Shown here piece after piece: positions 16,868-30,964 of a stretch of 30,964 nt of DNA. The stretch's first letter is position 1. Each line of letters opens with the position of its first letter. Location: assembly GCA_964493715.1 (NCBI GenBank), contig CAZBPC010000028.1, positions 3,726-34,689 on the forward strand, given 5' to 3'. Position numbers and translations under genes: made by a program. The notes beneath the pieces are model-generated. The model made no database searches. It saw only the letters and a program-made list of their open reading frames with translations, and was not told the origin of the DNA. This DNA is from an uncultured archaeon (GTDB taxonomy: Archaea; Asgardarchaeota; Lokiarchaeia; Sigyniarchaeales; SOKP01).

Positions 16868-18313
16868 TTGCCAATTGGTATTAAAAGCTATGGTGCTTAT
16901 TTACCTAAATACATGCTACCCAGGGAACTCATAGCGAAAGCATGGGACTTTCCGATAGTTCCGGGGACTAAAGCAGTAGCTATGGAGGATGAGGACAGCT
17001 TGACAATGTCAGTAGAAGCAGGACTCGATTGCTTAGAGGGAATTGACCCAAAGACAGTTGATGGAATATTTTTTGCTTCAACAACTCAAGTCTATACTGA
17101 GAAAGATTCAGCCTCTTTAATCGCTACTATTCTCGATATGAGAGGAGATATCATTACCGCAGATTTTACGGACTCAACTAAAGCTGGAACAACAGCTTTA
17201 ACTAGAGCTGTAGATGCGATTAAAGCCAATAAGGATATCAAGAGTATTTTGGTAGTTGCAGCTGATACGAGAAAACCCGAACCCTCAACAATGTGGGAGT
17301 TTGGATTTGCAGATGGTGCTGCCGCTTTACTCATAGCGGATGAAGAAAATATCCCGATCTCGATCGATGATTACTATTCAGTTTCAGCGAACGTGACTGG
17401 ACCATGGAAAAGAGCAGACAAGGATGAGTTTATCAGAACTTTTGAAGTAAAGATGGATGCAAAATTTTACGTGGAAAGCATCACCAAAGTTATGTCTGAA
17501 GTCTTGAAACGTAATAATTTAAACCCTTCCACAGACATCCAAATTGCTGCATATTATTATAATAACCCCAGAATGCATAGCACGATATCCAAGATGATGA
17601 AATTTGGCCAAGGAGTAGCTCAGAACAGCTTGTTCTTTCAAGTAGGTGATATGGGAACGCCAATGCCTTTCATGCTTCTCATTGCTAGCTTGCGAAGACC
17701 TAAACAAGATGACAAGATCATAATGGCCGGTTTTGGAGATGGTGCTGATGCTATTCTCATGCAGGTTCGAGATAAAGATGGTGTCAGGGATATCGGTAAA
17801 GGAAGAATGGGTTTTGTCGGTCACCAAAAATCGATGACCCTTCTAAATAATTACAACAAGTTCATCGAGTTTAAGGAATTGCTTGAGAAGGACAGATATA
17901 CGCGAAAAAGTTCAGCTGTCATTATCTGGCGTGATACTCCTTCAGTTTACAAGTGGTATGGTGTAAAATGCAAAAGTTGTGGAACCGTGCAATATCCTAA
18001 CCTTTCACGAGCTTGTTCCGTATGTAGAGCTGATGATCAATTAGAACCCATTAAACTTGCAAAGAAAGGAGAACTCTTTACATTTACCCTTGATCACTTG
18101 GTTGGTGGAGCTTATCTTAATACGCCCGTCCCACGATGCGTTATAGACCTTGAAGGCGGTGGAAGAGTGTTAGTTAACATGACTGAAATCGAGAACCCTG
18201 AGGAAAATGTCAAGATTGGAATGAAACTCGAGATGACCTTCAGAAAGGAACACGAAGGTGCTGAATTTAAAAATTATTATTGGAAATGTCGACCCGTGAG
18301 GGGGAGACCTTAA
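16868..18313 (+). CDS. HMG-CoA synthase/KASIII-like protein fused to a DUF35 (Zn-ribbon + OB-fold) domain
   Basis: GIKSYGAYLP, DEDSLTM, DGAAALLI, VGDMG, GFGDGADA; C-terminal CKSCG..YP...CSVC and OB fold (FTFT, DLEGGGR, IGMKLEMTFR, YYWK). TTG start after GAGGT. Confidence 0.9.
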   Translation: MPIGIKSYGAYLPKYMLPRELIAKAWDFPIVPGTKAVAMEDEDSLTMSVEAGLDCLEGIDPKTVDGIFFASTTQVYTEKDSASLIATILDMRGDIITADFTDSTKAGTTALTRAVDAIKANKDIKSILVVAADTRKPEPSTMWEFGFADGAAALLIADEENIPISIDDYYSVSANVTGPWKRADKDEFIRTFEVKMDAKFYVESITKVMSEVLKRNNLNPSTDIQIAAYYYNNPRMHSTISKMMKFGQGVAQNSLFFQVGDMGTPMPFMLLIASLRRPKQDDKIIMAGFGDGADAILMQVRDKDGVRDIGKGRMGFVGHQKSMTLLNNYNKFIEFKELLEKDRYTRKSSAVIIWRDTPSVYKWYGVKCKSCGTVQYPNLSRACSVCRADDQLEPIKLAKKGELFTFTLDHLVGGAYLNTPVPRCVIDLEGGGRVLVNMTEIENPEENVKIGMKLEMTFRKEHEGAEFKNYYWKCRPVRGRP

Positions 18314-18314
18314 A

Positions 18315-18320
18315 GGAGGT
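18315..18320 (+). promoter_or_regulatory. Shine-Dalgarno GGAGGT of the thiolase gene
   Basis: GGAGGT 7 nt upstream of ATG 18328 and just after the upstream stop codon, consistent with an operon. Confidence 0.8.
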
Positions 18321-18327
18321 AAAAAAA

Positions 18328-19606
18328 ATGGTTAGACATGGAATTAAAGATAAAGTCGCAATTATCGGTTGCGACATGACAAAATATGGAGAACGATGGG
18401 ATAAGTCACAATACGACCTGCTCTTCGAAGCATTTCAAAGCGCGACGAAGGATGCTGGAATTAAGAAGGATGAGGTGGATGCGAGCTGGGTTGGGATATT
18501 TTACTACTTTACTGGACTATCAGGTGCGATGGTAGAAGATATCCTAAAGTTGGATGGTAAACCCGCTACTCGCGTGGAAAATTACTGCGCTTCGGGCATG
18601 GATGCGTTCCGTAATGCATGCTTTGCCGTTGCTTCTGGTGCATATGACGTTGTCCTCGCCTGTGGAGTGGAGAAACAATATTAACATTTTGTTAATATGC
18701 TCTAGACTCATGGACGAGGGCGGTAGTGGTTTACCCGGATTTACCCAATTCGGACATCCGCTATATCCGACGCCTTCCGCGCCAGCAATGTTTTCGATGG
18801 CGGCCACAAGATGCTTTCACGAGTTCGGATGGACGAAGGAAGATCTTGCCCGAGTCGCGGTAAAAAACCATGATAATGGGTCTCATCATCCAAAAGCACA
18901 TTTTCGAAGCCCAATTTCTTTAGAAGCTGCGATGAAAGCCCCCATGATTGCGGACCCTCTCGGTAGATTCGACTGCTGCGCAAAAATTTAATCACTTAGA
19001 TAAAATTACGCAATGTCAGACGGAGCTGCCGCGTTGATCCTCACCAGACCAGACCTCGCCGAAAGTTATGCCCATGCGGATGACTACGTGCTGGTAAAAG
19101 CCAATGCAATTTCGGCTCACACCAATTTTCCGTGGTACGTGCCACCTGGAGGGCCTGGAGCGGATTTCACTGCATTTCCATCAACGGTAAAAGCGGCGAA
19201 ATACGCCTATCAAGAAGCAGGAATTACCAATCCGCGGAAAGAAATCGATGCTGCAGAAGTCCATGACTGTTTTACGATCACAGTTGATTACATTGCGTAA
19301 TTAACGGTTAATGAACTTATAAACTGTCAGGACCTGCAATTCTGCGACCGAGGGAAAGCAGCTGAAGAACTTAAGAACGGAACGTTCAACTGGGATGGCG
19401 AAACCGCCGTGAATCCATCGGGAGGACTAAAAAGTTTTGGTCATCCTATTGGAAGTACTGGCTGTCGGATGCTCACGGAAATCACCAAGCAAATCCAAGG
19501 ACGTGCTGAGGGAAGGCAAGTGCCCGATGCTAAGATCGGCTTATGCCATAACCTTGGCGGTGCGTTTAGCGTCTGTGCCACGACAATATTAGGTCAACGA
19601 GATTAA
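18328..19606 (+). CDS. SCP2-type thiolase (acetyl-CoA acyltransferase) split by three BHB introns; exons 18328-18674, 18706-18983, 19014-19281, 19312-19606; 395 aa spliced
   Basis: Exons sum to 1188 nt (395 aa + stop). Motifs ENYCASG, GVEK/LMD, KNH.NG..HPKAHF, FDCCA/MSDGAAA, EVHDCFTIT/ELI, NPSGGL..FGHPIG.TG and HNLGG are all intact after splicing. Confidence 0.9.
18675..18705 (+). other. Putative BHB intron 1 (31 nt) in thiolase mRNA
   Basis: ACAATATTAACATTTTGTTAATATGCTCTAG. Central helix GGAG(18669-72)/CTCT(18700-03), bulges AAA and AGA, stem ATATTAAC/GTTAATAT, loop ATTTT. Removal gives GAG AAA CTC ATG (EKLM) and repairs a frameshift. Confidence 0.85.
18984..19013 (+). other. Putative BHB intron 2 (30 nt) in thiolase mRNA
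   Basis: AAATTTAATCACTTAGATAAAATTACGCAA. Central helix GCGC(18978-81)/ACGC(19008-11) with one C-A mismatch, bulges AAA and AAT, stem AATTTaATC/GATaAAATT, loop ACTTA. Removal gives TGC GCA ATG TCA GAC (CAMSD). Confidence 0.78.
19282..19311 (+). other. Putative BHB intron 3 (30 nt) in thiolase mRNA
   Basis: AGTTGATTACATTGCGTAATTAACGGTTAA. Central helix GATC(19276-79)/GGTT(19306-09), bulges ACA and AAT, stem GTTGATTAC/GTAATTAAC, loop ATTGC. Removal gives ATC ACT GAA CTT (HDCFTITEL). Confidence 0.87.
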
Positions 19607-19630
19607 ATTTCTTTTTTTCTATTTTTTTTA
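19607..19630 (+). terminator. Oligo-T archaeal terminator candidate after thiolase
   Basis: ATTTCTTTTTTTCTATTTTTTTTA immediately after the stop codon. Confidence 0.5.
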
Positions 19631-19823
19631 ATGGAATCTACCGGTAAAAATAAGAATTTACGGGCTAAATTCATTGTAAGCTTTATATTCTATACAGAGG
19701 ATAAATATTTATATTTGTTTATATAAGATAAAGTTAAGAAATTCAACTTCAGAGGTAAAAATTATTATTGAACACGAGAAGGAAAACATTGGAAAGCCAA
19801 AAAAAGCGGGTTTAGTTTTAACC

Positions 19824-20174
19824 GTGATTGGGGCGATTTGGATGTTCAGATCATTGGTGTTTATGGTCCCTGACATTTACAAAATTGCTTTAATGGTAGG
19901 GATTATAATTTCAATAATTGGGGGGATCATGGTGATAAAAGGTAAAAAACCTGGAAGGTTAATTTCTTTAATAGGTGGAATTGTAAATCCCATTCTCATT
20001 ATAATGGTTGTATACAACCCTGCTCTTTGGTTCTATGACTTTTGGTACGGTTTACTGAATCACTTCATATTTATGTTTTTGACAATTTATGGATTCGCTA
20101 TTTTTGGGATTTCTTTTTTGTTGTTATTGATCGGTGGGATTCTTAGCTTTAAGATAGAAGAATTACAGATATGA
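19824..20174 (+). CDS. Small multi-pass membrane protein; true start may be TTG 19768 with a frameshift in the A7 run at 19799-19805
   Basis: Hydrophobic 116-aa ORF with repeated I.GGI motifs; SD-like AGAGGT at 19751 precedes an out-of-frame TTG at 19768. Confidence 0.65.
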   Translation: MIGAIWMFRSLVFMVPDIYKIALMVGIIISIIGGIMVIKGKKPGRLISLIGGIVNPILIIMVVYNPALWFYDFWYGLLNHFIFMFLTIYGFAIFGISFLLLLIGGILSFKIEELQI

Positions 20175-20248
20175 TAGATTTAATTTCTAGAGGGACTAAG
20201 ATTTATCCACAAGATTTGGTAAATAAGATTAATTAAATTAATAAAACG

Positions 20249-20485
20249 ATGACCGAAAAGAAAGGTTATGAATTTAAATTATTAAGATTTATTAGTCCAA
20301 TTTGTAAATCAAAAAAAGATCTAAAAATTCCATTTTCTATTATTATTAAGATTCATGAATTAACAACCATTTACATTCCAAAAGGTCTCATATGTGAACA
20401 TCACTTTCAAGCTTTTCTTGATAAAAATTTTGTAATTAGAGGTTACCAGCGAGTTGATTTCACTAATCCTAAGAGTTTAAATTAG
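20249..20485 (+). CDS. Stand-alone, possibly degenerate copy of the Zn-ribbon-like domain found in 490-1401
   Basis: SPICK...ICEHHFQAFLDKNFVIRGYQRVDF versus CPHCN...VCEHSFQIFVDKHFVIRGYQRVDF; the first Cys is replaced by Ser. Confidence 0.6.
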   Translation: MTEKKGYEFKLLRFISPICKSKKDLKIPFSIIIKIHELTTIYIPKGLICEHHFQAFLDKNFVIRGYQRVDFTNPKSLN

Positions 20486-20521
20486 TAGGGGGAGTAGGGG
20501 GGCACTTGCGGAACTACTATT

Positions 20522-21011
20522 ATTATAGTTTTAACTATAGTTAAATTAGATGATGCTTATGGATAGTCTTGGGAAATGTTTTTAAGGAAATTTTAATAGG
20601 TTTTTTTTTATGGGCTGTGAGATGTGTGAATCTGTTTGTTCCTAAATTTTGCATCCAAAAAAGTGTTAACCTCAAAATCAACAAACTATATTAGAAACTA
20701 TAGTATTCATTCATATTTTTATTATTTTGACTTTTTCAAGCAAATCCCTCTGGAAGTGGTGTTAAATTCCAAGAAGCGAGCTTAAAATAGTTTTGTTTTA
20801 ATGAGTATATGAAAGCAATCCAAAAATGAGCGCAATATCCTAGGTTTCCACCAACACGGCACAGGAATATTCTTGTTTAAAGAAGAAATATAGTAATTTC
20901 AGATAATCCAATCTTATATATTTCCTATTAAAATCCAATGGATTCTTAAATAAAGCTCCCCCCACATTTAACATAACCAGCTTTATGTTTAACTATAATT
21001 TAGACTATAGT
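20522..21011. repeat. Three copies of a spaced dyad A(C/T)TATA-N6-ACTATAGT (20522, 20685, 20992); the first includes the 16-bp palindrome TTTAACTATAGTTAAA (20530-20545)
   Basis: ATTATAgttttaACTATAGT, ACTATAttagaaACTATAGT and ACTATAatttagACTATAGT read directly; identical 12-bp period in all three. Confidence 0.7.
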
Positions 21012-21012
21012 T

Positions 21013-21089
21013 TGCCCGATTGGTTTGTGTCATAACCTTGGGGTGCATTCAGCGTGTGCGCCACGACCATATTAGGGCAACGAGATTAA
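21013..21089 (+). pseudogene. Diverged duplicate of the thiolase 3' end (copy of 19521-19606)
   Basis: TGCCCGAT..TGGTTTGTGTCATAACCTTGGGGTGCATTCAGCGTGTGCGCCACGACCATATTAGGGCAACGAGATTAA encodes IGLCHNLG/AFSVCATTILGQRD*. It has an 8-nt and a 1-nt deletion plus mainly third-position changes, and is followed by a similar T-tract. Confidence 0.88.
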
Positions 21090-21143
21090 AAATATTACTT
21101 TTTTTTTATATTTTTTGGGTCTAATTTTATTTTAAGTTCTAAT

Positions 21144-21665
21144 TTATTTTTCTCGCATGTGAGAGATTATCATTCTCGTTAATTCTTCAAAGGATTTTTC
21201 CACATTTTCGCCAGTTTTGCTGGAACATTCAATATAGTTATTCAGACCCAATGAATCTGCAAGCCGTTTTGCTTCGTTGATAGAAACTTCTCTAAATTGT
21301 TCTAAATCTAATTTACCTCCTAGTAATAAGATCGGGAAATTTACGTTAGTTTCATTTATAATTGATAACCAGTCATGAACATGGGAAAAGGAGGAATAAT
21401 CAGTAATATCATACATTAAAATTCCCCCCATTGCTCCTTGGATATATTGGGGAAATAAAGTTCGAAATCGTTCTTCACCACCAAAATCCCAGATCATGAG
21501 ATTAACACGCTTTTCATCGACTTCGATGATTTTAGTTTCAAATTCCACTCCTATAGTCATTTGAGAATCAGGGAGGAATATATCTTTAACAAATCGTTTA
21601 TTTAAAGTTGTCTTACCACAACCTGCGTCACCGAAAATAACGATTTTAAAAATCAAGTCATACAT
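21144..21665 (-). CDS. Rab-like small GTPase (173 aa), paralogue A
   Basis: FKIVIFGDAGCGKTT, TIGVEF, WDFGGEERFR, GGKLD, ECSSKTGENV; start moved to ATG 21665 to match the paralogue. Confidence 0.93.
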   Translation of the reverse strand: MYDLIFKIVIFGDAGCGKTTLNKRFVKDIFLPDSQMTIGVEFETKIIEVDEKRVNLMIWDFGGEERFRTLFPQYIQGAMGGILMYDITDYSSFSHVHDWLSIINETNVNFPILLLGGKLDLEQFREVSINEAKRLADSLGLNNYIECSSKTGENVEKSFEELTRMIISHMREK

Positions 21666-22177
21666 TTTAATCAAATTTAATAATTTTTTCTGGTTATTAA
21701 TCTGAATTACTTGGTAATATATCGCTTCATCAAGAAATCAACGACTAAGTAAAAATTTAATTCTTGATCTCGTGTTTAAATTTTTAAGTGTTCGATCTTG
21801 ATGGGATATAGTAAAAATGGAAAATATCTACAAATATTTAAACTTTCTCCAAATAATTTATCAATATCTAATTTGTATGAGCTAAATTGATGAAAAGTAA
21901 TATTCAAATCAATCTATTTAGAGCAATTTTTCCCTTTAAAGCTAAATTTTAAGAAAAAAAAGGCATGAAATTTTTATTTAGTATAAACAATGATTCCAAC
22001 CACAAAGACAGCTATATTATTAAGAAAAAATTTCCAAACGGAATTATGTCTTTTGGATATGCTGCTCATATTGATATAGCAATATCAGTTATTTTACCAA
22101 GATTGAGAACAACCAATCAGATTTCATAATTCAATTATTAAAAGCAAAAAAAAAGAATTTAACAAATAGCCATTTGA

Positions 22178-23059
22178 TCACTCGATTGGCCATTCAAGTA
22201 GTGATAGAATCAAATTTTTGTGAGATAATCCTCCCCTAGTAAGTGTGCCAACAAAATTTTCTCGTGTAAACATCTTTTTTAAGACATAACTTAAAACTTG
22301 CTTATCACGTAGTCCTTTTTCATTAGCTTCCTTTTGAAATCGATGAGCTTTCAGATGTAGTGAATCAATCTCATCCATTCTATCTTTTAAAAACGATCTG
22401 TCTTTAAATACTCCTTTCCCAGAAGTAAAAAGAAGTAAATTTTCCATTCCTTTGGTAAGATCATGTAATTTTTTAATTGATTGAAATATAAGGAATATAT
22501 CTTCGGGGATGTCCGTATCCTTACCAAATATCATTTGATATTTTGGCATGACTGCATCGGTGATGAATGCCCACTGTTGTTTTCGTTCAATTAAACTAAC
22601 AATTTCAGGTGCATGTCCGGGAGTATCTACTATCTCAAAAATGTATTTACCTGACTTGGAACAAATCAGATCTTGTAACAATTCAGCTTGAAAGGGTTGA
22701 AAATCTAACCCCCAAGTCATTTGACGATAATCGGGATAATTCTTTTTTTTTTTCAACAATGGAATAGCCAATTTACTAGCATATACGGGAATTTTAAATT
22801 CCTCTTGGAGCATGCGACCTCCCCCGCAATGATCTTCATGGTTATGAGTAATTACACATTTTGCAACCATGTTTTCGGAATCAAGAGATTTGATGAATTC
22901 ACGCAAATCATCTACTCCTCCGGGAGCTCCTGCGTCAATTAATAACCCATCAATTAAAAATACGGAAGTCCAAAAGGGTTGTGGCATCAATTTATTATCT
23001 GAAGACCATTTCCACTCTAATATCTCGTTATTACAATGATAAACTTTTTGAATAACCAT
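22178..23059 (-). CDS. MBL-fold metallo-hydrolase
   Basis: LIDAG, THNHEDHCGG, TPGHA, FITD. Confidence 0.88.
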   Translation of the reverse strand: MVIQKVYHCNNEILEWKWSSDNKLMPQPFWTSVFLIDGLLIDAGAPGGVDDLREFIKSLDSENMVAKCVITHNHEDHCGGGRMLQEEFKIPVYASKLAIPLLKKKKNYPDYRQMTWGLDFQPFQAELLQDLICSKSGKYIFEIVDTPGHAPEIVSLIERKQQWAFITDAVMPKYQMIFGKDTDIPEDIFLIFQSIKKLHDLTKGMENLLLFTSGKGVFKDRSFLKDRMDEIDSLHLKAHRFQKEANEKGLRDKQVLSYVLKKMFTRENFVGTLTRGGLSHKNLILSLLEWPIE

Positions 23060-23204
23060 AATAGTTTCATTTGCGATAAAAATAAAAAGTGTAGATTTAA
23101 CGTTGCCTAGTTATTATGAACTTCAATAATTCAAACTTTAAATTTTTTGGCTCTTAATTTTATCATAAAAATCCATCAATTGGAGAATAGAAGGAGAAAG
23201 AAAA

Positions 23205-23306
23205 TTGAGTAAAACTGAATTTAAAGGCAATTTATTGAGTCCTTTACCCGTTATACTGGTAGGAGCAAATGTGAAAAATTAACCAAATTATTTACTTATC
23301 GGATAA
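23205..23306 (+). pseudogene. Flavin reductase/flavoredoxin N-terminal remnant
   Basis: After AAGGAG (23191), TTG start gives MSKTEFKGNLLSPLPVILVGANVKN*PNYLLIG*, matching the P.PV.LVGA.V.GKPN motif, with a premature TAA at 23280 and truncation. Confidence 0.65.
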
Positions 23307-23414
23307 CTATAACACTCGGAGACAGCATGGACCATTTATTCTTATATATTAAAAGATTTTCAGCAAAATACTATTATAGGATTCTTACTTCTGTAGATTT
23401 ATCTCTACAATTTT

Positions 23415-23936
23415 TCAGGACTCTCTCATTTTATTAACCATAATTCTCGTTAAATCTTCAAACGATTTTTCCACATTTTCACCCGTTTTGCTGGAACATT
23501 CAACATATTTATTTAAACCCATAGAGTTTGCAAGTTGCTTTCCCTCGTTAAAAGAAATTTCTCTCTTTTCATTTAAATCTATTTTACCTCCTAGTAATAA
23601 GATGGGAAAGCGCTCTCTTTCGCCATTTATAACTGATAACCAATCAATGGTATGAGAAAAAGAAGAGTAATCCGTGATATCACACATTAAAATTCCCCCC
23701 ATGGCTCCATGAATATATTGGGGAAAGATAAATCGAAATCGTTCTTCACCTCCAAAGTCCCAAATCATTAACTTAACTCGCATATCATCGATCTTGATGA
23801 TTTTAGTTTCAAATTCCACTCCTATAGTCATTTGAGAATCCGGTATAAATAAGTCGGTCACAAAACGTTTAGTTAAAGTAGTCTTACCTGAACCTGCGTC
23901 GCCAAAAATGACGGTTTTGAAAATTGCGTCATACAT
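23415..23936 (-). CDS. Rab-like small GTPase (173 aa), paralogue B
   Basis: FKTVIFGDAGSGKTT, TIGVEF, WDFGGEERFR, GGKID, ECSSKTGENV. Confidence 0.93.
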   Translation of the reverse strand: MYDAIFKTVIFGDAGSGKTTLTKRFVTDLFIPDSQMTIGVEFETKIIKIDDMRVKLMIWDFGGEERFRFIFPQYIHGAMGGILMCDITDYSSFSHTIDWLSVINGERERFPILLLGGKIDLNEKREISFNEGKQLANSMGLNKYVECSSKTGENVEKSFEDLTRIMVNKMRES

Positions 23937-24249
23937 TTTAATCTAATTTAATTTTTTTTCTGGTTATTAATCTGATATATGTGAAAATATAACTTTTTAG
24001 CCACTCAACTAATACTCAAGTAAGAATTTCTTTCTATATCTTTCTTTCTGAATAGCCCATCGAGCAAAGATAATATGAAACTTGTGATATTTAAATTTTT
24101 CCATAATAATTTACCAATATCAAAATTGTATGAAGTAAATGGATAGAAAATGAGAGATCAATCAGTACTTTTAGTTAATTTCATTTTTATCCTATGAATT
24201 ATAGGAAAATAATATTATTACTGAATATTAGATAAAATTTTTTTTATTT

Positions 24250-24768
24250 TTATCTTCTTAAATCAATAATTCTACGAGTTAACATGCTAATCGCATCATC
24301 AACTATAACAATATCAGTTGGAGACGCTTCAATATAGATTCCTCCCTCATTTTCTGCAAATCCACGAGCCTTTTCTCTAAGATGTGTTTTGTCGACTTCT
24401 TTAAGCTTATCAATATTATTTCCAATCAATAAAAAAGGTCTAAAACCATTAACCTGTATTATTTCTGTAAAAAAATTTCTAACTTCAGCAAATGTTTCCT
24501 CCTTGGTCAAATCGAAAATTAAAATTATTCCTGCAGCTCCTTTGTAAAACGTGCTACGAATGAGCTCAAATCGTTTTTGACTTCCAATGTCCCATAGCGA
24601 AAGATTAGCAATTTCACTGAGTTGGAACTCAACATCTTTAGTTAAAATGTCGACTCCAACTGTCAACTTGTAGTTTGCAGCAAACCGATTTTTAACGATT
24701 TGTTGGACCAACCGATTTTTAACTAAATCTCTTCCAATTAGTATTATTTTAAGTTTAAAATGAGACAT
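24250..24768 (-). CDS. Rab-like protein with degenerate nucleotide-binding motifs (pseudo-GTPase candidate)
   Basis: Likely start MSHFKLKIILIG at 24768. Retains YKLTVGVDILTK, WDIGSQKRF, FYKGAAG and FDLT, but G1 is GRDLVKNR, G4 is NNID and G5 is EASP. Confidence 0.85.
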   Translation of the reverse strand: MSHFKLKIILIGRDLVKNRLVQQIVKNRFAANYKLTVGVDILTKDVEFQLSEIANLSLWDIGSQKRFELIRSTFYKGAAGIILIFDLTKEETFAEVRNFFTEIIQVNGFRPFLLIGNNIDKLKEVDKTHLREKARGFAENEGGIYIEASPTDIVIVDDAISMLTRRIIDLRR

Positions 24769-24980
24769 GATTACAGATTGAATAACCCAAGTAATGATAA
24801 GAAAATCTAATCTTATAAATAATTTCATTAAATTAATAGCATTAATATCTTAGCATCAACTTCAACTAATTCAAATGAGGTTTGATACTTCGAACATTAA
24901 GACTATAAATATGCTTAGCCCTATTTATGCATAAATTAATTTGTAACAATGCCAATCATAAAAATTATTGTGGTTAAAAA

Positions 24981-25820
24981 ATGGATGCTAAAAAATTAGA
25001 TTTTGAATCAATATATTTTGATCTCTATGAATTAAGTCCAGGGATATTCGCAGCAATTTCAGCAGAAAAAATATTCACTTCAAATGCGGGATTTTTTGAT
25101 CTTGGTAATTATCTAATTATCTTTGATACACTCATGGACCCATATTCCACTATTGATCTCATTAAAGCGTCAAAACAATTTACAAATAAGGATCCTTCTT
25201 TTCTAATAAACAGTCATCATCACATAGATCATTTATTTGGGAATAGAAAGTTTCCCATGAATATTCCTATTATTTGCAGCAGTGAAGCATTGAAAGAATC
25301 ACAAAATTACCTAAATACGCGGTTTAGAGATTTTCAGAATAGAGCTCCTGAAGAACTTAAAAAAACAGAAGAGGTCTTATTGAATGAAAAGAATCCCGAT
25401 AAAATTTTAGAGTTGAAAAATGATATAAATACATGGAATGAAATTAGGGACCCCGATTTTGAATTAAGACAACCAGATTTTATAATTGATGATTCTATTA
25501 CTATAATTGGTACCAAAAACCAAGTTCAAGTAATACATATAGGAGCCGCTCACACTAAAGGGGATATAATCGCTCTTTTCGAAAAAGAAAAAATTTGTTT
25601 TATGGGAGACTTATTATTCGAGCAAACTGATCCTAATTGGGCTAGTGGTGCACCTGGATCACCAGTTCCAGCGAACCCTGAACGGCTTCGCGATACTTTA
25701 AACGATTACGCTGAGAAGGATATTGACATTTATATCCCGGGGCATGGTAAAATATGCACTAAAAAAATTCTTCGGGATAATGCAATATTTTACAATGAGT
25801 ATTTTATAAAAAAAAAATAA
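24981..25820 (+). CDS. MBL-fold metallo-hydrolase (cyclase-like subgroup)
   Basis: SNAG, FDT, NSHHHIDHLFGN, AHTKGD, GDLLF, PGHG. Confidence 0.9.
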   Translation: MDAKKLDFESIYFDLYELSPGIFAAISAEKIFTSNAGFFDLGNYLIIFDTLMDPYSTIDLIKASKQFTNKDPSFLINSHHHIDHLFGNRKFPMNIPIICSSEALKESQNYLNTRFRDFQNRAPEELKKTEEVLLNEKNPDKILELKNDINTWNEIRDPDFELRQPDFIIDDSITIIGTKNQVQVIHIGAAHTKGDIIALFEKEKICFMGDLLFEQTDPNWASGAPGSPVPANPERLRDTLNDYAEKDIDIYIPGHGKICTKKILRDNAIFYNEYFIKKK

Positions 25821-25975
25821 GCCTTCGAAATTATTAATATCTCTTTTTTCTTATATGGTAATATTTGTACGAAAACGGAACTTTTAGAAAATGCTGATGA
25901 TAATATCAAAAGCTATAAATATTAAATTGATTCTATTTAGACTATTAGATTTTTTTCCCAAAAAGGTGAATTAAT

Positions 25976-26521
25976 TTGAATAAAGGAAGAAATATGTTAG
26001 GGGTTATATCCCTCATCATTGCATTATCAGGGGTCGCGGTGGGGGCTTTTTCATTCATTTCCATGAATAATTATATCAACGAAACGAATGCATATGTTCA
26101 GCCAATGGCAAGTGTGTATTATGATGATGTGTCTATATATTCAATACCTGATCAATCATCCCAAATATTCAACTATAATCAAATAAGTTATGATAATCGT
26201 GATGCATTTAATCTCACATCTGATTCCTATACTATTCATGAACCGGGAATTTATCAAGTAACAGCGCAATATAGTATAGAAGCATATGATGGGGATTTTT
26301 TTATGATCCAACTTCTTAGTAATAGTACTATAGCTTGCTCCAGATCATTTACAGCAAGCACATATACTAATACATTTGGGGTTGGTCTAACGAATAATTT
26401 TAAATTTGTAGAAGGTGAATCTCTTAGTATACAAATATACCAATATAATGGTGCACACACAACAAGAAATATATTCCCTGGAGGGGCACACAACTTTTTT
26501 ACGATTGCTAAACTAGCCTAA
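25976..26521 (+). CDS. Membrane-anchored C1q/TNF-like beta-sandwich domain protein
   Basis: N-terminal TM helix, then FNYNQISYDNRDAFNLTSDSYTIHEPGIYQVTAQ, FVEGESLSIQIY and NFFTIAKL, matching the C1q-like pattern. Confidence 0.65.
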   Translation: MNKGRNMLGVISLIIALSGVAVGAFSFISMNNYINETNAYVQPMASVYYDDVSIYSIPDQSSQIFNYNQISYDNRDAFNLTSDSYTIHEPGIYQVTAQYSIEAYDGDFFMIQLLSNSTIACSRSFTASTYTNTFGVGLTNNFKFVEGESLSIQIYQYNGAHTTRNIFPGGAHNFFTIAKLA

Positions 26522-26736
26522 GATTACTGAAGAATACTTAAGAATAAATCCATTTTCTTTTCTTTTCATTTTCTTTTTTAAAATAGCTCTAATAAATGAG
26601 GTAAGGTAAATAAAAATAAATATTAAAAATTATTTGAGTATATTCACTATTATAAAAAATTTTCATTCTTAAACTTAATCCTTGATAAAGTAAAATATAT
26701 CAAATCCTTACAGCAATAGAGATAATTAATAATTTA

Positions 26737-28140
26737 TTACTTCTTATTATATTTCATCCCACATTGTGGACAAAAGGTGGCTTCTTCATTGATTTCTAAT
26801 CCACAAAAAGAACATTTAATTATTTGAGGTTCAAGTGGTATTAATTCTTCTAGTTGTTCTTCTGGTATATTCTCTCTCACTTCCTTTTCTGGTATGACTT
26901 CCAGCTTCCTCTCCCCGTAATCAAATTCTCTTTTTGAAATTTCTGTTAATTGAAAAGCTGTTCTTGATTTTCTTGGATATTTTATCTCGGTTCTATTAAT
27001 AGATTTCCTTCTTCTTGTAATAAGCATCCCAGCTATGGACATTGTAATGGCAATGAGAATCACTATTATTATTATTATTATTATAATTTCAATAGGAAAT
27101 TGGTTTCCATTAATGGGAAGAACTTCTTGAATATCCTCTCCATTACCGTTAAAAAAGTTGTTTAAAACGTTATTGTATCGAGAATAATAGAGATAAATAC
27201 CAACATGATTAGTTGTAATTGTGTTCATTACGATTATATTATTATTACTTCTCCATAAATATAATCCCGCAAAACTGTTATAACTTGCGTTATTTCCCGA
27301 AACGGTATTAACATTGCTATTCCATAAAAATATTCCATTCCAACCGTTATGATTTGCGATATTTCCTACAACTTTAATATCTTGACTATCGGATATGTCT
27401 ATTCCATTGTCACGATTATAGGTAACATTGTTGTTCATTATAGTATTGTTATTACTTGAAGAGGATAAATAAATCCCTCTCCAATCATTATTAAAAGCAG
27501 AGTTATTCAAAATTTTGTTATTGTTGCTTAAACCTAAATATATCCCATCCGAATTCTCTTTTAATGTGTTTTCCGAAAGAATATTATCATGACTCCCTAC
27601 TAAAAACAAACCAAACTCAACATTATTGTTTACTATGTTTCCAACAATGGTAATGTTTTGACTTTGGTATAAACCGATTCCAACCCCATAATTAGTTGAA
27701 CAGTCGTTATTTATTAAATGACCATTTAGAACATTATTTAATTTGATTCCTGCATTATATAGTCCTGGACCGGAATTATAAAGCGTACAGTTTTCAATCT
27801 TAAAGTACACGTCGGAATTTTCAATCACGATGCAACTTCCTGAGTCTCCAGCATCTATGACCAAATCCACTATGACGTAAGGTTCAATATAGGTGCCATT
27901 CCCCGTACAAATTCCCAGAGCTTTGGCAGCAGTCCAATTGTTATCAATATGAATTTTTCCTGATGTTGCTGAGATTTGTAGATTTTTATTATCTAACTGA
28001 ATTTCATCGTTATATTCTGAACTTTTATCGCTGTTTCTCGTATTAAAATTGAGATTATTATTAATAATTATTGGTGATAAAGCGAAAAGAATTCCTAATG
28101 CCATCAAAAAAATAATTCTTGTTTTAGTTTTTAATTTCAT
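26737..28140 (-). CDS. Surface protein with parallel beta-helix (NosD/pectin-lyase-like) repeats, C-terminal TM helix and cytoplasmic zinc ribbon
   Basis: Signal/TM at MKLKTK (28140), GNGTYIEPYVI, repeated GIYL..SNNN.I..N, a poly-Ile TM, and CSFCG...FCPQCG. Confidence 0.88.
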   Translation of the reverse strand: MKLKTKTRIIFLMALGILFALSPIIINNNLNFNTRNSDKSSEYNDEIQLDNKNLQISATSGKIHIDNNWTAAKALGICTGNGTYIEPYVIVDLVIDAGDSGSCIVIENSDVYFKIENCTLYNSGPGLYNAGIKLNNVLNGHLINNDCSTNYGVGIGLYQSQNITIVGNIVNNNVEFGLFLVGSHDNILSENTLKENSDGIYLGLSNNNKILNNSAFNNDWRGIYLSSSSNNNTIMNNNVTYNRDNGIDISDSQDIKVVGNIANHNGWNGIFLWNSNVNTVSGNNASYNSFAGLYLWRSNNNIIVMNTITTNHVGIYLYYSRYNNVLNNFFNGNGEDIQEVLPINGNQFPIEIIIIIIIIVILIAITMSIAGMLITRRRKSINRTEIKYPRKSRTAFQLTEISKREFDYGERKLEVIPEKEVRENIPEEQLEELIPLEPQIIKCSFCGLEINEEATFCPQCGMKYNKK

Positions 28141-28572
28141 GCTGTTTTCTCCCATAATTGATAAGTCGTTAATAATTAGGTTACTTTCCTTCATGTACAT
28201 TTCTGTCAATTAGGTTTAGCGGGAAATAACAAATATTAATTTTATTTTCTCATTTCATCAATGCTCTCAAATATTATGATTTGTCCTCTAAACCAGTCTA
28301 ATGTATAATTATCTTTATTTCTGTTGATGAATGCAATAAACCATTCAATCATTTAATCTTTGTTCATACTTTTATCTTGAGATTTTTTTTAATTCTTTTA
28401 TTACACTTAGGACATACATTAATAATCTTAGGATTAATTGGATTTGTTATTTTTGACGTTACGAATATAATCTGACAATTATAGAAAAAAAAACCATGAG
28501 TCTTCATTATTAATAACAATTCTTTTTATTACAGTCATAAATTATTTAATTCCTAATTAATTTCAATTACTT

Positions 28573-29427
28573 ATGAGTAGTGATGGATTTAATCGGTTTA
28601 AAGGCAATGTAAATACTGATAGAATCAAATATATTGCCGATCCTCAGCTGAGAAACATTGTGAACGTTTCTATTGCCTTAGCACGACCTTTATTGGTAAA
28701 GGGAGAGCCTGGTACTGGAAAAACGCTGTTATCTCATGCAATAGCAGAATCATTGGGAAAAAGACTCATTATATGGAATGTAAAGAGCACTACAGAAGCA
28801 ATAGATGGGTGTTACATGTATGATACTGTCCAAAGACTAAACGATAGCCGATTTGGGTGTGAGGATCGAAATGTCGATAATATTAAAGATTATATAACTC
28901 TTGGGCCTTTAGGTGAAGCTTTTGATTCTGATGAGCAAGTCGTTCTTCTTATTGATGAAATAGATAAAGCGGATATCGAGTTTCCAAATGATCTTCTGCA
29001 AGAGTTAGACGTTATGGAATTTTATGTTAAAGAGACAAAAGAATTTGTAAAAGCTAAAACGCGACCAATCGTTATAATCACATCAAACAACGAAAAAGAG
29101 CTTCCTGATGCATTCTTGCGTAGATGCGTGTTCCATTGGATTGAATTTCCCATGAAAGAATTCATGACAGAAATTTGTAATCTCCATTATCCAAATTTAA
29201 AGCAAAATTTATTGGATCAATGTTTAAAACACTTCTATGCCCTTAGAGCTATAACTAAATTAAGAAAAATGCCTTCGACTTCAGAACTACTCGATTGGAT
29301 TGGGGTATTGCTTAAAAGTGGAATTTCAATCGAAGAATTTAGAAAAGAAATACCCTTTTTAGGCGTGTTATTAAAAAAAGAGAAAGATATAGAAATCGCT
29401 CTCGAGAAAATCAAATTTCCGACATGA
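28573..29427 (+). CDS. MoxR-family AAA+ ATPase (CoxD-like)
   Basis: PLLVKGEPGTGKT, LLIDEIDKADIEFPNDLL, ITSNNEKELPDAFLRRC, PSTSELLDW. Confidence 0.95.
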   Translation: MSSDGFNRFKGNVNTDRIKYIADPQLRNIVNVSIALARPLLVKGEPGTGKTLLSHAIAESLGKRLIIWNVKSTTEAIDGCYMYDTVQRLNDSRFGCEDRNVDNIKDYITLGPLGEAFDSDEQVVLLIDEIDKADIEFPNDLLQELDVMEFYVKETKEFVKAKTRPIVIITSNNEKELPDAFLRRCVFHWIEFPMKEFMTEICNLHYPNLKQNLLDQCLKHFYALRAITKLRKMPSTSELLDWIGVLLKSGISIEEFRKEIPFLGVLLKKEKDIEIALEKIKFPT

Positions 29428-29748
29428 TATATTCCTCTCTTGCTCATTTCAATACTTCCTTTATACTAGATTCTCTTTTGTATTTTCAAGAAGGGGTTAA
29501 TTTATAAGCAATTAATTTCATATCATTCAGAAATCAGTTCTCTCATATTTGGATCTTTTAATTCAGGGATTTTGTAGAATAGAAAAAAATATCAAAAAAA
29601 ATTAAAAATGAACCCCCAACTCTAAAAAAACCATTAACGTAGAGAATGAATTTGTATATTTCATCTACTCTTATTTTGCGTGAATCGACAGAATGATATA
29701 AAATAAAATCATAATTAATTAATTTAGGCGTTCACTCTAATATCATGG

Positions 29749-30964
29749 ATGTTTGTCGAATACTTTTACTATCTCAAAGATAGATTGCCCGTATCCCTAA
29801 CGGAATACATGACCCTAATCGAAGCATTAGACAAGGGACTCATCCATAACATGGTAGAATTCTATTACATCTCTCGCTCACTCCTCTGCAAGAATGAACA
29901 CCATTTTGACATCTATGACATCGCTTTTGCGAACTTTTTTAAAGACGCATCGCTCAAATTTCCCGATGAGATTAAACAACAAATCTGGGATTGGCTAGAT
30001 AAAAAACTCGACCCACAAGAATTACCCGATAATTTCCAGCAATTCATGAGTGAAATCTTCGACCTTGAAGAACTCCAAAAACAACTCGATGAATTGCTCA
30101 AAAGACAAGACGAAGACCATGATGGCGGCGATCACTGGATCGGAACTCAAGGCGAATCGCGGTTTGGCCATTCTGGACAAAATCCAATGGGCATGAAAAT
30201 CGGTGGGTCGGCTGGGATGCGAATGGCTATCCAAATCGCCCAAAAAAGAATCTTTGCCGATTACAGAAAAGATGTCGTCTTAGATACCCGCCAAATCAAG
30301 GTCGCACTCAAGCGCCTCAAAAAACTTGAAGAAATCGGCAAGCAAGATGAATTAAACATCGATAAAACCATCGATCAAACGGCTAAGAATGGCGGAGATA
30401 TTGATCTAATTTTCGAAAAAAAGAGAAAGAATAACGTGAAGCTGATATTGCTAATGGATGTCGGTGGCTCCATGACTCCTTATGCTCACCTCGTAAACCT
30501 CCTATTTTCTGCCGCAAACAACATGTCGCACTGGAAAAAGTTTGAGCACTTTTATTTTCACAACTGCCTTTATGAGACTCTCTATTTCAACGCACAGAGA
30601 AATCCGGAAGAATCCATTCCATTTGAAGAATTTTTGAAAAAATATAACAGTAAATATAAAGTAGTCGTGGTGGGCGACGCCGCAATAATTTAATCGAATT
30701 CCGATTAAGTTGTGAGGGCAAGTTGGGAGCTCACCGAAAGATATGGGAGTATCTACTATTATCATCGGAACGAATTGCCCGGTGCGTATTATATACGCGA
30801 ACTTGCGAACCATTTCAAGAATAATGTCGTATGGCTTAACCCAGAAATCATACGGTTGGAGTGGGTGCCGTGGACGCGGAAGATAATTTCAAGCATCATC
30901 CCGATGTTCCACCTTACAGTGGAAGGGATTGAAGAAGCCATGGATTTTCTACGGAAGGGCGGTA
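29749..30964 (+). CDS. VWA-domain (CoxE-like) partner of MoxR, split by one BHB intron; exons 29749-30686 and 30717->30964 (runs off the window end)
   Basis: HDGGDHWIGT.G.S.FGH.G, LLMDVGGSM and YFHNCLY. After intron removal the frame reads VGDAAMASWELTERYGSIYY...VWLNPE...MFHLTVEGIEEAMDFLRKGG, open to the window end. Confidence 0.9.
30687..30716 (+). other. Putative BHB intron 4 (30 nt) in VWA mRNA
   Basis: AATTTAATCGAATTCCGATTAAGTTGTGAG. Central helix CGCA(30681-84)/TGTG(30711-14), bulges ATA and AGG, 9-bp stem ATTTAATCG/CGATTAAGT, loop AATTC, outer GC/GC pairs. Removal gives GCA ATG GCA (GDAAMA). Confidence 0.88.

Follow-up and report, generated by a model that had tools for sequence, protein, structure and literature searches.

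Probable bulge–helix–bulge mini-introns of about 30 nucleotides in protein-coding genes of an Asgard archaeon

Four short inserts in two reading frames

The window (the whole 30,964-nt stretch of DNA that was analyzed, from an uncultured archaeon) contains a thiolase-like gene with three short inserts and a VWA/CoxE-like gene with one. The features are as follows, where H denotes the helix between exon and intron nucleotides and vertical bars mark predicted cuts.

16868–18313, + strand: upstream gene, a ketoacyl-synthase-III-like, ChsH2 zinc-ribbon, and OB-fold fusion (Pfam ACP_syn_III, zf-ChsH2, OB_ChsH2_C)
18328–18674, + strand: thiolase-like gene, exon 1 (Thiolase_N model positions 1–113); the frame runs into exon 2 after excision
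18675–18705, + strand: intron 1, 31 nt; H GGAG/CUCU, bulges AA|A and AG|A, 9-bp stem
18706–18983, + strand: thiolase exon 2 (Thiolase_N positions 155–197)
18984–19013, + strand: intron 2, 30 nt; H GCGC/ACGC with one C-A mismatch, bulges AA|A and AA|U
19014–19281, + strand: thiolase exon 3, 268 nt (Thiolase_C_1 positions 14–49)
19282–19311, + strand: intron 3, 30 nt; H GAUC/GGUU, bulges AC|A and AA|U, perfect 9-bp stem, 5-nt loop
19312–19606, + strand: thiolase exon 4, including the stop codon (Thiolase_C_1 positions 52–143)
29749–30686, + strand: VWA/CoxE-like gene, exon 1 (Pfam VWA_CoxE match)
30687–30716, + strand: intron 4, 30 nt; H CGCA/UGUG, bulges AU|A and AG|G, 9-bp stem, 5-nt loop
30717–30964, + strand: VWA/CoxE-like exon 2, extending past the window end

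The upstream fusion gene and the thiolase gene lie within a stretch of higher GC content (0.40–0.45).

The coordinates and lengths of the four inserts (31, 30, 30, and 30 nt) that a sequence-only reading of this DNA had given were confirmed, and each insert contains a TAA in frame with the preceding coding sequence. In standard ORF calling, the interrupted genes appear as fragments. As that reading had also claimed, excision restored the frame and a family motif at all four sites, giving one thiolase and one VWA/CoxE-like frame. Removal of introns 1–3 produced an uninterrupted thiolase-like protein of 395 aa, with the peptides ACGVEKLMDEGG, CCAMSDGAAA, and HDCFTITELI across joints 1, 2, and 3, respectively. 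Removal of intron 4 produced a continuous VWA_CoxE protein with VGDAAMASWEL across the joint; this product reads ...VGDAAMASWELTERYGSIYYYHRNE, the same as the intron-less orthologues, and its conserved Met codon ATG is formed only by the AT|G joint. Pfam model coordinates were consecutive across the joints, as in thiolase exons 3 and 4 (Thiolase_C_1 14–49 followed by 52–143). The proposed junctions GGAGAA|ACTCATG, TGCGCAA|TGTCAG, GATCAC|TGAACT, and CGCAAT|GGCAAG were found as described and match intron-less orthologues.

In an alignment of 24 thiolase orthologue rows, introns 1, 2, and 3 were present in 2, 3, and 2 rows, respectively, and the gaps fell exactly at the predicted cuts, so the objection that they might be incompatible with bulge–helix–bulge (BHB) cleavage fails. 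Intron 1 was absent from 22 of the 24 rows, and exon 2 orthologues showed identities of 74–98%. The alignment of the VWA/CoxE-like gene spans the joint in 71 related loci, 69 of which read straight through as VGDAAMASWEL, while two (L044 and L045) carry a 30-nt insert at the intron 4 site. The suggested Asgard origin was borne out, since nearly all of 75 related loci are titled Promethearchaeota or Promethearchaeia MAGs.

Small palindromic DNA insertions might simply have broken these genes, leaving pseudogenes from which the inserts are never removed. The in-frame stop in every insert, the fragments obtained by standard ORF calling, and the AT-rich and in each case unique insert sequences would fit such an explanation. 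However, the thiolase exons have dN/dS values of 0.018–0.043, indicating strong purifying selection rather than the value near 1 of a dead gene. Moreover, comparable introns interrupt rtcB and the ribosomal protein S8 gene, each of which occurs only once in this genome (rated 100% complete), as well as the EF-2, leuS, nadE, and proteasome alpha genes. The introns also persist between species with compensatory changes, and cleavage and ligation at predicted sites were seen in RNA (both described below). Pseudogene formation is thus strongly disfavored, and we regard it as extremely improbable.

An assembly or sequencing artefact has to be weighed because the genome that contains the window was assembled from a metagenome, in 160 contigs; against it, the same inserts, slightly different, occur in the independently assembled G001, G003, G004, G007, G016, G022, G023, G024, G194, L044, and L045. 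In addition, DNA runs X4 and X5 covered all 30 bins of the examined stretch, and the only joint at an insert, among the joints listed for these runs, was an intron-1-less allele in X4, whose contig lacks positions 18676–18709 and reads EKLM. An X5 contig at 19302–20396 fits the window without other letters or gaps. The chance that the inserts are artefactual is close to negligible.

Fold, predicted cuts, and covariation

The four window introns share a common fold, in which a 4-bp exon–intron helix H, bounded by two 3-nt bulges, encloses a 9-bp stem. H pairs at 4, 3, 4, and 4 of its four positions in introns 1–4, G-U pairs included, and the single C-A mismatch expected in intron 2 is indeed located in H. 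The inner stem h′ is strong, with 9 bp closing a 5-nt loop; intron 1 is longer by one nucleotide, and its fold of minimum free energy contains 9 bp and a 3-nt loop. The outer exon–exon helix h comprises only 0–2 bp in the window introns and 0–4 bp in those found elsewhere in the genome; L044 and L045 have 6 bp. Since this outer helix is weak, the motif corresponds to the relaxed HBh′ form rather than the full hBHBh′ form.

In each bulge, the splicing endonuclease EndA cleaves 3′ of the second nucleotide. Applied to the four window sites, this rule reproduced the sequence of the intron-less orthologues in every case; the passages of the literature at hand place EndA cuts within each bulge and leave the exact nucleotide unnamed. 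Nine more introns of the genome, and seven orthologous ones of relatives, also have an H of 3–4 pairs with 3-nt bulges. Among them, the introns of rtcB, the contig C120 thiolase, and the proteasome alpha gene, which were detected by homology alone with no structural filter, have H, the 3-nt bulges, a 9-bp stem, and frame-correct cuts. The BHB geometry and cut rule put forward in the sequence-only reading therefore fit all four window inserts and three introns found independently of structure.

Thermodynamic folding gave a less uniform picture: for introns 1 and 4, RNAfold favored alternative local pairings, and for the region of intron 2 it gave a fold no better than those of shuffled sequences (z = 0.18). 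A 29-nt insert in G016 (pos0) did not follow the BHB rule in any of the three registers tried. A self-splicing group I or II intron, or another known RNA family, was considered and rejected, as the inserts are only 29–31 nt long and Rfam gave no matches across the whole window at the gathering score and none at E values up to 1 in 18300–19650.

Both helices are kept by compensatory changes in orthologous introns of other species. Intron 1 recurs in G016 with differences in two loop nucleotides, and intron 3 recurs in G022 with differences confined to the loop. Intron 2 is present in this genome, G007, and G024 (3 of the 24 rows), and between the first two, four stem pairs are altered on both sides and one mismatch is repaired. 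In L044 and L045, an H pair of intron 4 is changed from C-G to A-U and a stem pair from C-G to G-C. The S8 intron differs from its G023 counterpart by two pairs swapped on both sides. The rtcB intron differs from that of G194 by three changes, each pair-preserving or in a bulge, and a comparison of rtcB between G000 and G001 revealed many synonymous differences in the exon flanks and one nucleotide difference in the intron.

Across nine diverse introns, 98.2% of 114 cells pair versus 58.4% in shuffles, none of 500 of which reached this value, although the figure leans towards structure because some introns were found by a pairing descriptor and the alignment (A6) was model-fitted. When the partners were slid, pairing dropped to 36–43%, and 13 of 13 pairs in this set change on both sides.

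Distribution in the genome and among relatives

Nine further introns of the same design were found in the genes for rtcB, ribosomal protein S8, EF-2, leuS, nadE, proteasome alpha, an acs-like protein, and two thiolase paralogues, and a tenth probably resides in a korB-like gene. The genome thus contains at least 13 such introns of 29–31 nt in at least 11 genes, with up to three per gene, and several of them interrupt essential genes. The expectation of many more introns genome-wide held only to a modest extent: nine confirmed and one probable further intron were recovered in 3.68 Mb, but the window density is unrepresentative. The four introns in 31 kb form a local cluster, and the density in the genome as a whole is far lower; we estimate a total of a few tens at most.

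At 31% GC, this genome commonly matches loose hairpin descriptors, and genome-wide, only those BHB-like hairpins at ORF junctions that have a perfect stem showed any preference for frame. When a perfect 9-bp stem was required together with flanks of 60 or more codons, seven matches restored the frame, compared with 0, 1, 1, and 1 in four shifted controls. A blastn-short search of 14 introns against the genome returned, beyond the introns themselves, only matches of 13–22 nt with E values of 0.18 or above; the exception was a match of the palindromic S8 intron to itself over 22 nt. A MITE-like repeated element was rejected, as near-identical copies were absent from the genome and no transposon features were found.

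In most of 39 genomes the rtcB gene is intact; in G000 and G001, and also in G194, the break lies between model positions 47 and 48. Within the genus, the presence of the introns varies from one species to the next.

RNA joints, candidate enzymes, and comparable systems

In metatranscriptome run X23, one contig (231 nt, depth 9.5) joins position 19281 to position 19014 without ambiguity and represents a circle of thiolase exon 3. This joint places the 3′ cut of intron 2 at 19013|19014 and the 5′ cut of intron 3 at 19281|19282, as predicted, and because its ends are joined, it demonstrates ligation besides cleavage at two predicted sites in RNA. The RNA evidence consists of this one assembled contig from one run, and contigs cannot show abundance or absence; no exon–exon joint was seen among the metatranscriptome contigs, which likewise cannot prove its absence. 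The 19281–19014 back-joint was not found in DNA runs X4 and X5. Given the purifying selection and the cut-site support from orthologues, DNA, and RNA, the objections that the genes are dead, the gaps misplaced, or the inserts unsupported all fail.

Ribosomes could in principle hop over the 30-nt hairpins with no RNA cutting, as in phage T4 gene 60, where a coding gap is skipped by programmed translational bypass between matched take-off and landing codons. The combination of a hairpin with an in-frame stop shortly after it is reminiscent of a bypass signal, and CGCAA occurs both before intron 2 and at its end. On the other hand, introns 1, 3, and 4 lack matched take-off and landing codons, and three joints lie inside codons (AT|G in the VWA/CoxE-like gene, AC|T and AA|A in the thiolase gene) and need RNA joining. 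The exon 3 circle, moreover, reflects real cleavage at the boundaries. Bypassing is therefore very unlikely.

With respect to enzymes, the genome has two matches to PF01974 (EndA) and one gene matching PF01139 (RtcB). The EndA on contig C5, whose nearest chains are 3p1z_B, 3ajv_B, 2cv8, and 2zyz_B, retains the Tyr, His, and Lys residues, and in the second, on contig C58, Ser replaces the catalytic His. Circle formation is a product expected of EndA and RtcB. EndA and RtcB are the presumed acting enzymes, and mature mRNA would be produced by exon–exon ligation. Relaxed HBh′ motifs require an endonuclease of broad specificity, according to passages of two articles (PMC5829648, PMC6379350), the latter a review that names relaxed BHB motifs as substrates of (alpha-beta)2 enzymes.

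The inserts are thus very probably BHB mini-introns of the relaxed HBh′ type, which would be removed from pre-mRNA by EndA, with RtcB joining the exons. In the proposed mechanism, four nucleotides of the 5′ exon would pair in the transcript with four nucleotides near the intron 3′ end, and this 4-bp helix, together with the 9-bp intron hairpin, would display two 3-nt bulges on opposite strands. The archaeal splicing endonuclease, which is probably an (alpha-beta)2 heterotetramer formed by the catalytic EndA and its histidine-less paralogue, would cut each bulge after the second nucleotide. RtcB would then ligate the exons, restoring the reading frame, and may also circularize fragments freed between two cuts, such as exon 3.

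It is conceivable, if improbable, that another nuclease and ligase excise the inserts, for example a different structure-specific endonuclease acting with or without RtcB. The outer helix is weak, H is imperfect, the uniform 29–31-nt hairpins could be recognized by some other factor, and the G016 pos0 insert fits no BHB. Against this stand the introns found independently of structure, whose predicted cuts lie 3′ of nucleotide 2 in the 3-nt bulges on either side of a 4-bp helix, the exon–intron covariation in H, and the presence in the genome of an EndA alpha subunit, a beta-like paralogue, and RtcB. The exon 3 circle also agrees with the products to be expected of EndA plus RtcB.

In eukaryotes, HAC1/XBP1 offers a parallel to the proposed EndA/RtcB splicing of mRNA, being a short mRNA intron that is removed without the spliceosome through cuts in hairpin loops or bulges and joining by an RtcB-type ligase. 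There, however, the nuclease is IRE1 and the substrate is a single, regulated, frame-switching one, whereas the Asgard substrates are many and look constitutive. The occurrence of hairpin introns of about 30 nt in ordinary and essential Asgard protein genes bears on intron origins in relatives of eukaryotes. Watanabe 2002 and Yoshinari 2006 reportedly described the BHB intron of crenarchaeal cbf5 pre-mRNA, and in the literature consulted, crenarchaeal cbf5 alone has confirmed mRNA introns of the BHB type. In passages of Yokobori 2009 (PMC2738675), cbf5 is given as the only gene with confirmed splicing of its pre-mRNA. As described there, the cbf5 case is similar in that a short BHB-type intron interrupts a protein-coding gene, the hosts have a hetero-oligomeric splicing endonuclease, and the intron was gained and lost among related species. 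It differs in involving one gene and one intron, in Desulfurococcales and Sulfolobales, versus at least 13 introns in at least 11 genes, up to three per gene, with a uniform 29–31-nt design in the Asgard genome. In SOS splicing, as far as the cited passages describe it, pairing of inverted sequences triggers spliceosome-independent removal of inserts from animal mRNA (PMC12779559). Base-pairing inside the insert would drive removal in the Asgard case as well, but SOS splicing acts in animals on full transposons with terminal inverted repeats, whereas the Asgard inserts are unique sequences of 30 nt.

BHB introns of archaeal tRNA and rRNA, including those of the intron-rich tRNA genes of Asgard archaea, share the motif and the presumed enzymes, and they too show repeated gains and non-canonical or relaxed motifs, according to the parts of two reports at hand (10.64898/2026.10.13.758758, PMC11291895); these passages concern tRNA introns only, and the preprint text seen does not use the term mRNA. 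In the window introns, by contrast, the host RNA is mRNA, which means that one half of the motif, the exon side, is coding sequence and that the cut must preserve the reading frame. The tRNA genes of the same genome also contain introns, four of which are 29–30 nt long.

Four mini-introns in two genes of the window

Four short inserts, each with an in-frame TAA, interrupt two genes of the window, a thiolase-like gene (exons 1 to 4) and a VWA/CoxE-like gene. They lie at the coordinates and have the lengths that the sequence-only reading had reported, and their excision restores both reading frames as that reading had claimed, giving a thiolase-like protein of 395 aa and an unbroken VWA/CoxE-like one (predicted junction-spanning peptides: ACGVEKLMDEGG, FDCCAMSDGAAA, HDCFTITELI, and VGDAAMASWEL).

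Mini-introns of the window (H/H′, 4-bp exon–intron helix; arrows, predicted cuts in the bulges)
18675-18705, plus strand: intron 1, thiolase-like gene, 31 nt; H GGAG, bulge 1 AA↓A, 9-bp stem plus one extra nucleotide, H′ CUCU, bulge 2 AG↓A
18984-19013, plus strand: intron 2, thiolase-like gene, 30 nt; H GCGC, bulge 1 AA↓A, 9-bp stem with one A-A mismatch, 5-nt loop, H′ ACGC, bulge 2 AA↓U
19282-19311, plus strand: intron 3, thiolase-like gene, 30 nt; H GAUC, bulge 1 AC↓A, perfect 9-bp stem, 5-nt loop, H′ GGUU, bulge 2 AA↓U
30687-30716, plus strand: intron 4, VWA/CoxE-like gene, 30 nt; H CGCA, bulge 1 AU↓A, 9-bp stem, 5-nt loop, H′ UGUG, bulge 2 AG↓G

The outer exon–exon helix of these introns comprised only 0–2 bp, introns 1 and 4 preferred somewhat different local pairings when folded freely, and the intron 2 region was no more stable than shuffled sequence, suggesting that the motif, a bulge-helix-bulge (BHB), is of the relaxed HBh′ form. 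Rfam had no match anywhere in the window. Pfam assigned thiolase exons 1 and 2 to Thiolase_N, exon 3 to positions 14–49 of Thiolase_C_1, and exon 4 to positions 52–143, so that exons 3 and 4 are consecutive pieces of one domain. Pfam also identified the gene upstream of the thiolase as a fusion of a ketoacyl-synthase-III-like domain with ChsH2 zinc-ribbon and OB-fold domains, an arrangement that we take to suggest the archaeal acetoacetyl-CoA thiolase/HMG-CoA synthase/DUF35 complex, and found an AAA ATPase gene ahead of the VWA gene. The GC content of the synthase-fusion and thiolase pair (window 17001–20000) is 0.40–0.45 versus about 0.30 elsewhere in the window; this GC-richer stretch holds three of the four window introns, which are themselves AT-rich.

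At the RNA level, a contig from metatranscriptome run X23 (231 nt, depth 9.5, one mismatch) ran from 19082 to 19281 and then continued with 19014–19044. The 19281-to-19014 joint was unambiguous ("both" = 0) and was not found in the DNA runs X4 and X5. The bulge rule makes exon 3 begin at 19014 and end at 19281, so this RNA had undergone cleavage at intron 2's 3′ site and intron 3's 5′ site, and the exon's own ends had been ligated. RtcB is known to circularise fragments freed by EndA, as for tRNA introns and rRNA precursors. The back-joined exon 3, seen in one contig of one run and distinct from an exon–exon joint, is indirect evidence for mRNA maturation, and genes with several introns may shed circular exons. 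RNA coverage consisted of thiolase exon 3 alone in X23 and nothing on either gene in a second run, X24, leaving the VWA gene uncovered. No exon–exon joint turned up in either run, a result that carries no information on absence.

Occupancy of the intron sites in orthologues

In intron-less orthologues, the alignment gaps fall at the predicted BHB cuts, in line with the sequence-only reading. A thiolase alignment of 24 orthologue rows from 23 genomes (excluding L041, a 44%-identical paralogue) showed the intron 1 site to be occupied in 2 of 24 rows (the source genome and G016), the intron 2 site in 3 of 24 (the source genome, G007, and one contig of G024), and the intron 3 site in 2 of 23 (the source genome and G022), the remaining rows being continuous without an insert. 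For the VWA gene, 71 of 75 loci were alignable over the joint; 69 of the 71 were gap-free, with close intron-less orthologues reading VGDAAMASWEL across it, and a 30-nt insert at the intron 4 position was also present in loci L044 and L045 (2/71). A contig from X4 DNA lacked positions 18676–18709, had TTG in their place, and encoded EKLM, which is the predicted splice product. The dN/dS of the thiolase exons was 0.018–0.043 against five orthologues with estimable dS, far from the value near 1 by which the earlier reading had said dead genes would be recognised.

Around intron 1 (alignment columns 330–450), the source genome is 97–100% identical to G016, which has the intron (up to 100%), and to G009, which lacks it (up to 97%), versus about 70% outside these columns; inside them, this identity exceeds that to closer relatives. 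The rise is at most a hint of a recombination tract and may merely mark a conserved segment. G016 (L026, G016:C45) alone among the aligned rows has an extra 29-nt thiolase insert, some 94 nt upstream of intron 1. It lies between DAF and RNA codons and has a 7-bp hairpin and a possible exon–exon pairing; three equivalent registers were tried, and the BHB rule fitted none of them.

Further introns in the source genome

The source genome (G000) comprises 3.68 Mb in 160 contigs with 31% GC. Its Asgard origin, proposed from the sequence alone, agrees with the labels of the VWA-related loci, which almost all belong to Promethearchaeota or Promethearchaeia MAGs. Including the window's four, this genome has 13 confirmed introns and one probable one, all 29–31 nt long and nearly all with a 9-bp stem and a 4–5-nt loop, in genes of translation, RNA repair, the proteasome, and a lipid pathway.

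Confirmed introns outside the window (numbers after model names are model positions in the upstream and downstream parts; the paralogue screen, as for rtcB, used homology alone)
Contig C2, about 12136-12164 (L003 2670-2698), minus strand: rtcB, 29 nt between GGVGY and DINCG; H UUGG/CCAA, bulges AU↓A and AG↓A; found by homology alone
Contig C120: thiolase, 31 nt; H UUAC/GUAA; paralogue screen; Thiolase_C_1 1-48 upstream, 52-143 downstream
Contig C145: thiolase-like gene, 30 nt; paralogue screen
Contig C4: proteasome alpha, 31 nt; paralogue screen; Pfam proteasome model 1-98 upstream, 101-188 downstream
nadE: model 3-143 upstream, 144-242 downstream; descriptor, then Pfam
leuS: tRNA-synt_1g 4-46 upstream, 48-135 downstream; descriptor, then Pfam
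EF-2: upstream 42-aa part too short for a Pfam match; GTP_EFTU from position 48 downstream; descriptor, then Pfam
acs-like AMP-binding gene: model 9-208 upstream, 223-312 downstream; descriptor, then Pfam
Ribosomal protein S8: model 2-43 upstream, 93-126 downstream after a 46-residue head; descriptor, then Pfam

The probable intron is in a korB-like gene on C53, where the motif is perfect and the upstream part is too short for confirmation by Pfam. The C120 thiolase intron lies 4 nt from the position of window intron 3. S8 and rtcB are single-copy genes in the source genome, EF-2, leuS, psmA, and nadE have distant paralogues only (29–50% identity), and no second copy of any of the 14 intron sequences was found there.

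The sequence-only reading had also expected many more such introns genome-wide. This held in part, as nine confirmed introns and one probable one lie beyond the window, but the window's four proved to be a local cluster, with three in one gene. When loose BHB descriptors were applied to 3979 same-strand ORF junctions, 2063 frame-restoring cuts were obtained versus 2095 and 2110 wrong-frame ones; a further descriptor test gave 152 versus 156–173, and at no threshold tried was there an excess of frame-restoring cuts. The perfect-stem class, conversely, was enriched (7 versus 0–1), and 11 of 15 perfect-stem candidates with at least 41 codons on both flanks are the introns described here. Because the frame excess is confined to this class, we rejected a total in the hundreds and estimate a few tens at most.

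Several candidates were discarded after Pfam analysis: C68 holds carA then carB, C7 a pair of sulfotransferase genes, C47 a hydrolase that is complete with nothing after it, and C83 the end of an AFOR gene followed by a ThiS-like gene. Inspection removed C81, whose supposed intron encodes a CxxCxxC motif, and C41 and C32, which are operon junctions or fusions. In the C21 candidate (AcnX), the downstream half matched model positions 297–400 and the upstream half had no Pfam match; candidates on C51, C6, C9, C88, and C70 and at C53:9883 stand outside the 13 confirmed introns. Two MAFFT alignments (A1 and A2) placed the introns wrongly. Covariance model R1, built from four sequences, was too sequence-specific, and R2 gave held-out true introns only 10–33 bits and missed the C120 intron. 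A genome search with R2 (150 of 4098 candidates scored) returned seven of its own seeds and one other match, C73:622-664, a non-intron located within an open frame.

Comparisons between species indicate that the intron structure is under selection. Between G000 and G001, rtcB has many synonymous differences in the exon flanks and, within its 29-nt intron, a single one, at a bulge position. Between intron 2 and its G007 counterpart, both partners are exchanged in four stem pairs and one mismatch is repaired; the S8 introns of the source genome and G023 differ in both partners of two pairs. Relative to L044, intron 4 shows a C-G to A-U change in H that touches the third position of an exon Ala codon, one C-G to G-C change in the stem, and three G-U/A-U switches; relative to G194, the rtcB intron shows G-U to A-U and C-G to U-G changes together with a single substitution in a bulge. 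A single disrupting change, in L045, was seen among the helices compared. In an alignment of nine diverse introns (nadE, C145 thiolase, EF-2, korB-like, S8, the rtcB introns from G000 and G001, and window introns 4 and 1), 98.2% of 114 cells were paired, versus 58.4% in shuffles (0 of 500 reached the observed value) and 36–43% with slid partners, and 13 of 13 pairs changed on both sides, a count biased towards structure because the alignment was fitted to the model and several members had been found by a pairing descriptor.

Probable splicing enzymes, relatives, and wider reading

The source genome encodes a single RtcB and two PF01974 (EndA) proteins. The 207-aa EndA on C5, whose nearest chains are 3p1z_B, 3ajv_B, 2cv8, and 2zyz_B, retains Tyr, His, and Lys, and its 205-aa paralogue on C58, which aligns best with 1a79, has Ser at the catalytic His position. 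An (αβ)2 endonuclease consists of one catalytic and one structural subunit, and such enzymes carry the following specificity: according to a passage of PMC6379350, they cleave relaxed BHB motifs. This genome is rated 100% complete, and ARAGORN's tRNA gene count for it was only 27; 12 of the 27 have an intron (up to 39 nt, four of 29–30 nt), and many tRNA genes were probably missed owing to several or non-canonical introns. EndA cleavage and RtcB ligation of BHB mRNA introns, the mechanism put forward in the sequence-only reading, is the best explanation of these data, from which we infer exon joining and the enzymes involved. Mini-introns may be tolerated because a broad-specificity EndA and RtcB would remove them; with rtcB itself interrupted, RtcB synthesis would depend on RtcB.

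The S8 gene was present in 41 of 41 genomes, with short open frames and inserts at one site in G000, G023, and G004. In G003 (L172, G003:C147), a 29-nt S8 intron (H GCCU/GGGU, 9-bp stem, 4-nt loop) lies 9 nt upstream of that site, having either been gained independently or slid. Twelve of 30 S8 loci were inspected by eye; the others have open frames of 127–161 aa. For rtcB, counts come from 150 of 413 matches (377 genomes), and split-gene numbers are lower bounds: among the matches listed, the gene is interrupted between model positions 47 and 48 in G000, in G001 of the same genus, and in G194 of a different genus, and at least four genomes of another family (G154–G157) carry an in-frame, stop-containing insert near model position 20 (for G154, H CCCG/CGGG, bulges AC↓A and AA↓G). 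The phenomenon therefore extends past the source genus. The rtcB splits in G055 (C1:1558351-1561179) and G082 (C130:813-3653) were rejected as mini-introns, being about 1.4–1.5 kb within an open frame of about 995 aa, and look like inteins.

We tentatively suggest, at a little under an even chance, that uniform 29–31-nt protein-spliced mini-introns form a turning-over population in Asgard core protein genes, gained repeatedly and perhaps exchanged. Repeated gain at new or neighbouring sites is suggested by the 9-nt offset in G003 S8, the thiolase paralogues 4 nt apart, and the different rtcB site in another family, and mini-introns may be exchanged between species by recombination. A passage of PMC2738675 names cbf5 as the sole gene with confirmed pre-mRNA splicing, others being predicted, and for pre-mRNA the relevant passages of PMC12397907 (2025) and PMC5829648 cite cbf5 papers only. 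The intron passages of Asgard papers (2026 preprint, PMC11291895) concern tRNA introns only, and BHB introns of Asgard protein genes were reported nowhere in the full-text literature searched, subscription journals and supplements aside. In contrast to crenarchaea, where cbf5 is the one confirmed gene with a BHB mRNA intron, the source genome has at least 13 such introns; new here are their number in one genome of the lineage nearest eukaryotes, their polymorphism between species, and the selection on their structure. If the tentative reading is true, protein genes in the closest relatives of eukaryotes have a second way of becoming split, one that does not involve the spliceosome. The introns open to test intron gain and loss in protein genes without a spliceosome, exon sequence as a limit on settlement sites, and a possible feedback loop from rtcB's own intron. 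Gene callers will return the interrupted genes as fragments or pseudogenes, which would bias metabolic reconstructions of Asgard genomes as well as their apparent gene content and completeness.

Other broken frames were noted in the source genome. Compared with paralogues, genes on C87 (minus strand, about 3364–3378) and C89 (1593–1640) continue in an overlapping second frame; these changes are frameshift-like, with no hairpin insert seen. Single in-frame TAA or TAG codons, gap-free relative to paralogues, on C12 (11493), C17 (6295), C4 (79627), C80 (10012), C6 (80473), and C42 (10516) may reflect pseudogenes, strain errors, or recoding. Four HdrA-like paralogues, on C39 (minus-strand 10974), C59 (16046), C7 (60404, plus), and C74 (2658), each contain a single in-frame TGA in a shared conserved place (DDC[SG]I followed by the stop) and no added residues relative to an uninterrupted paralogue, which looks like selenocysteine rather than an intron.
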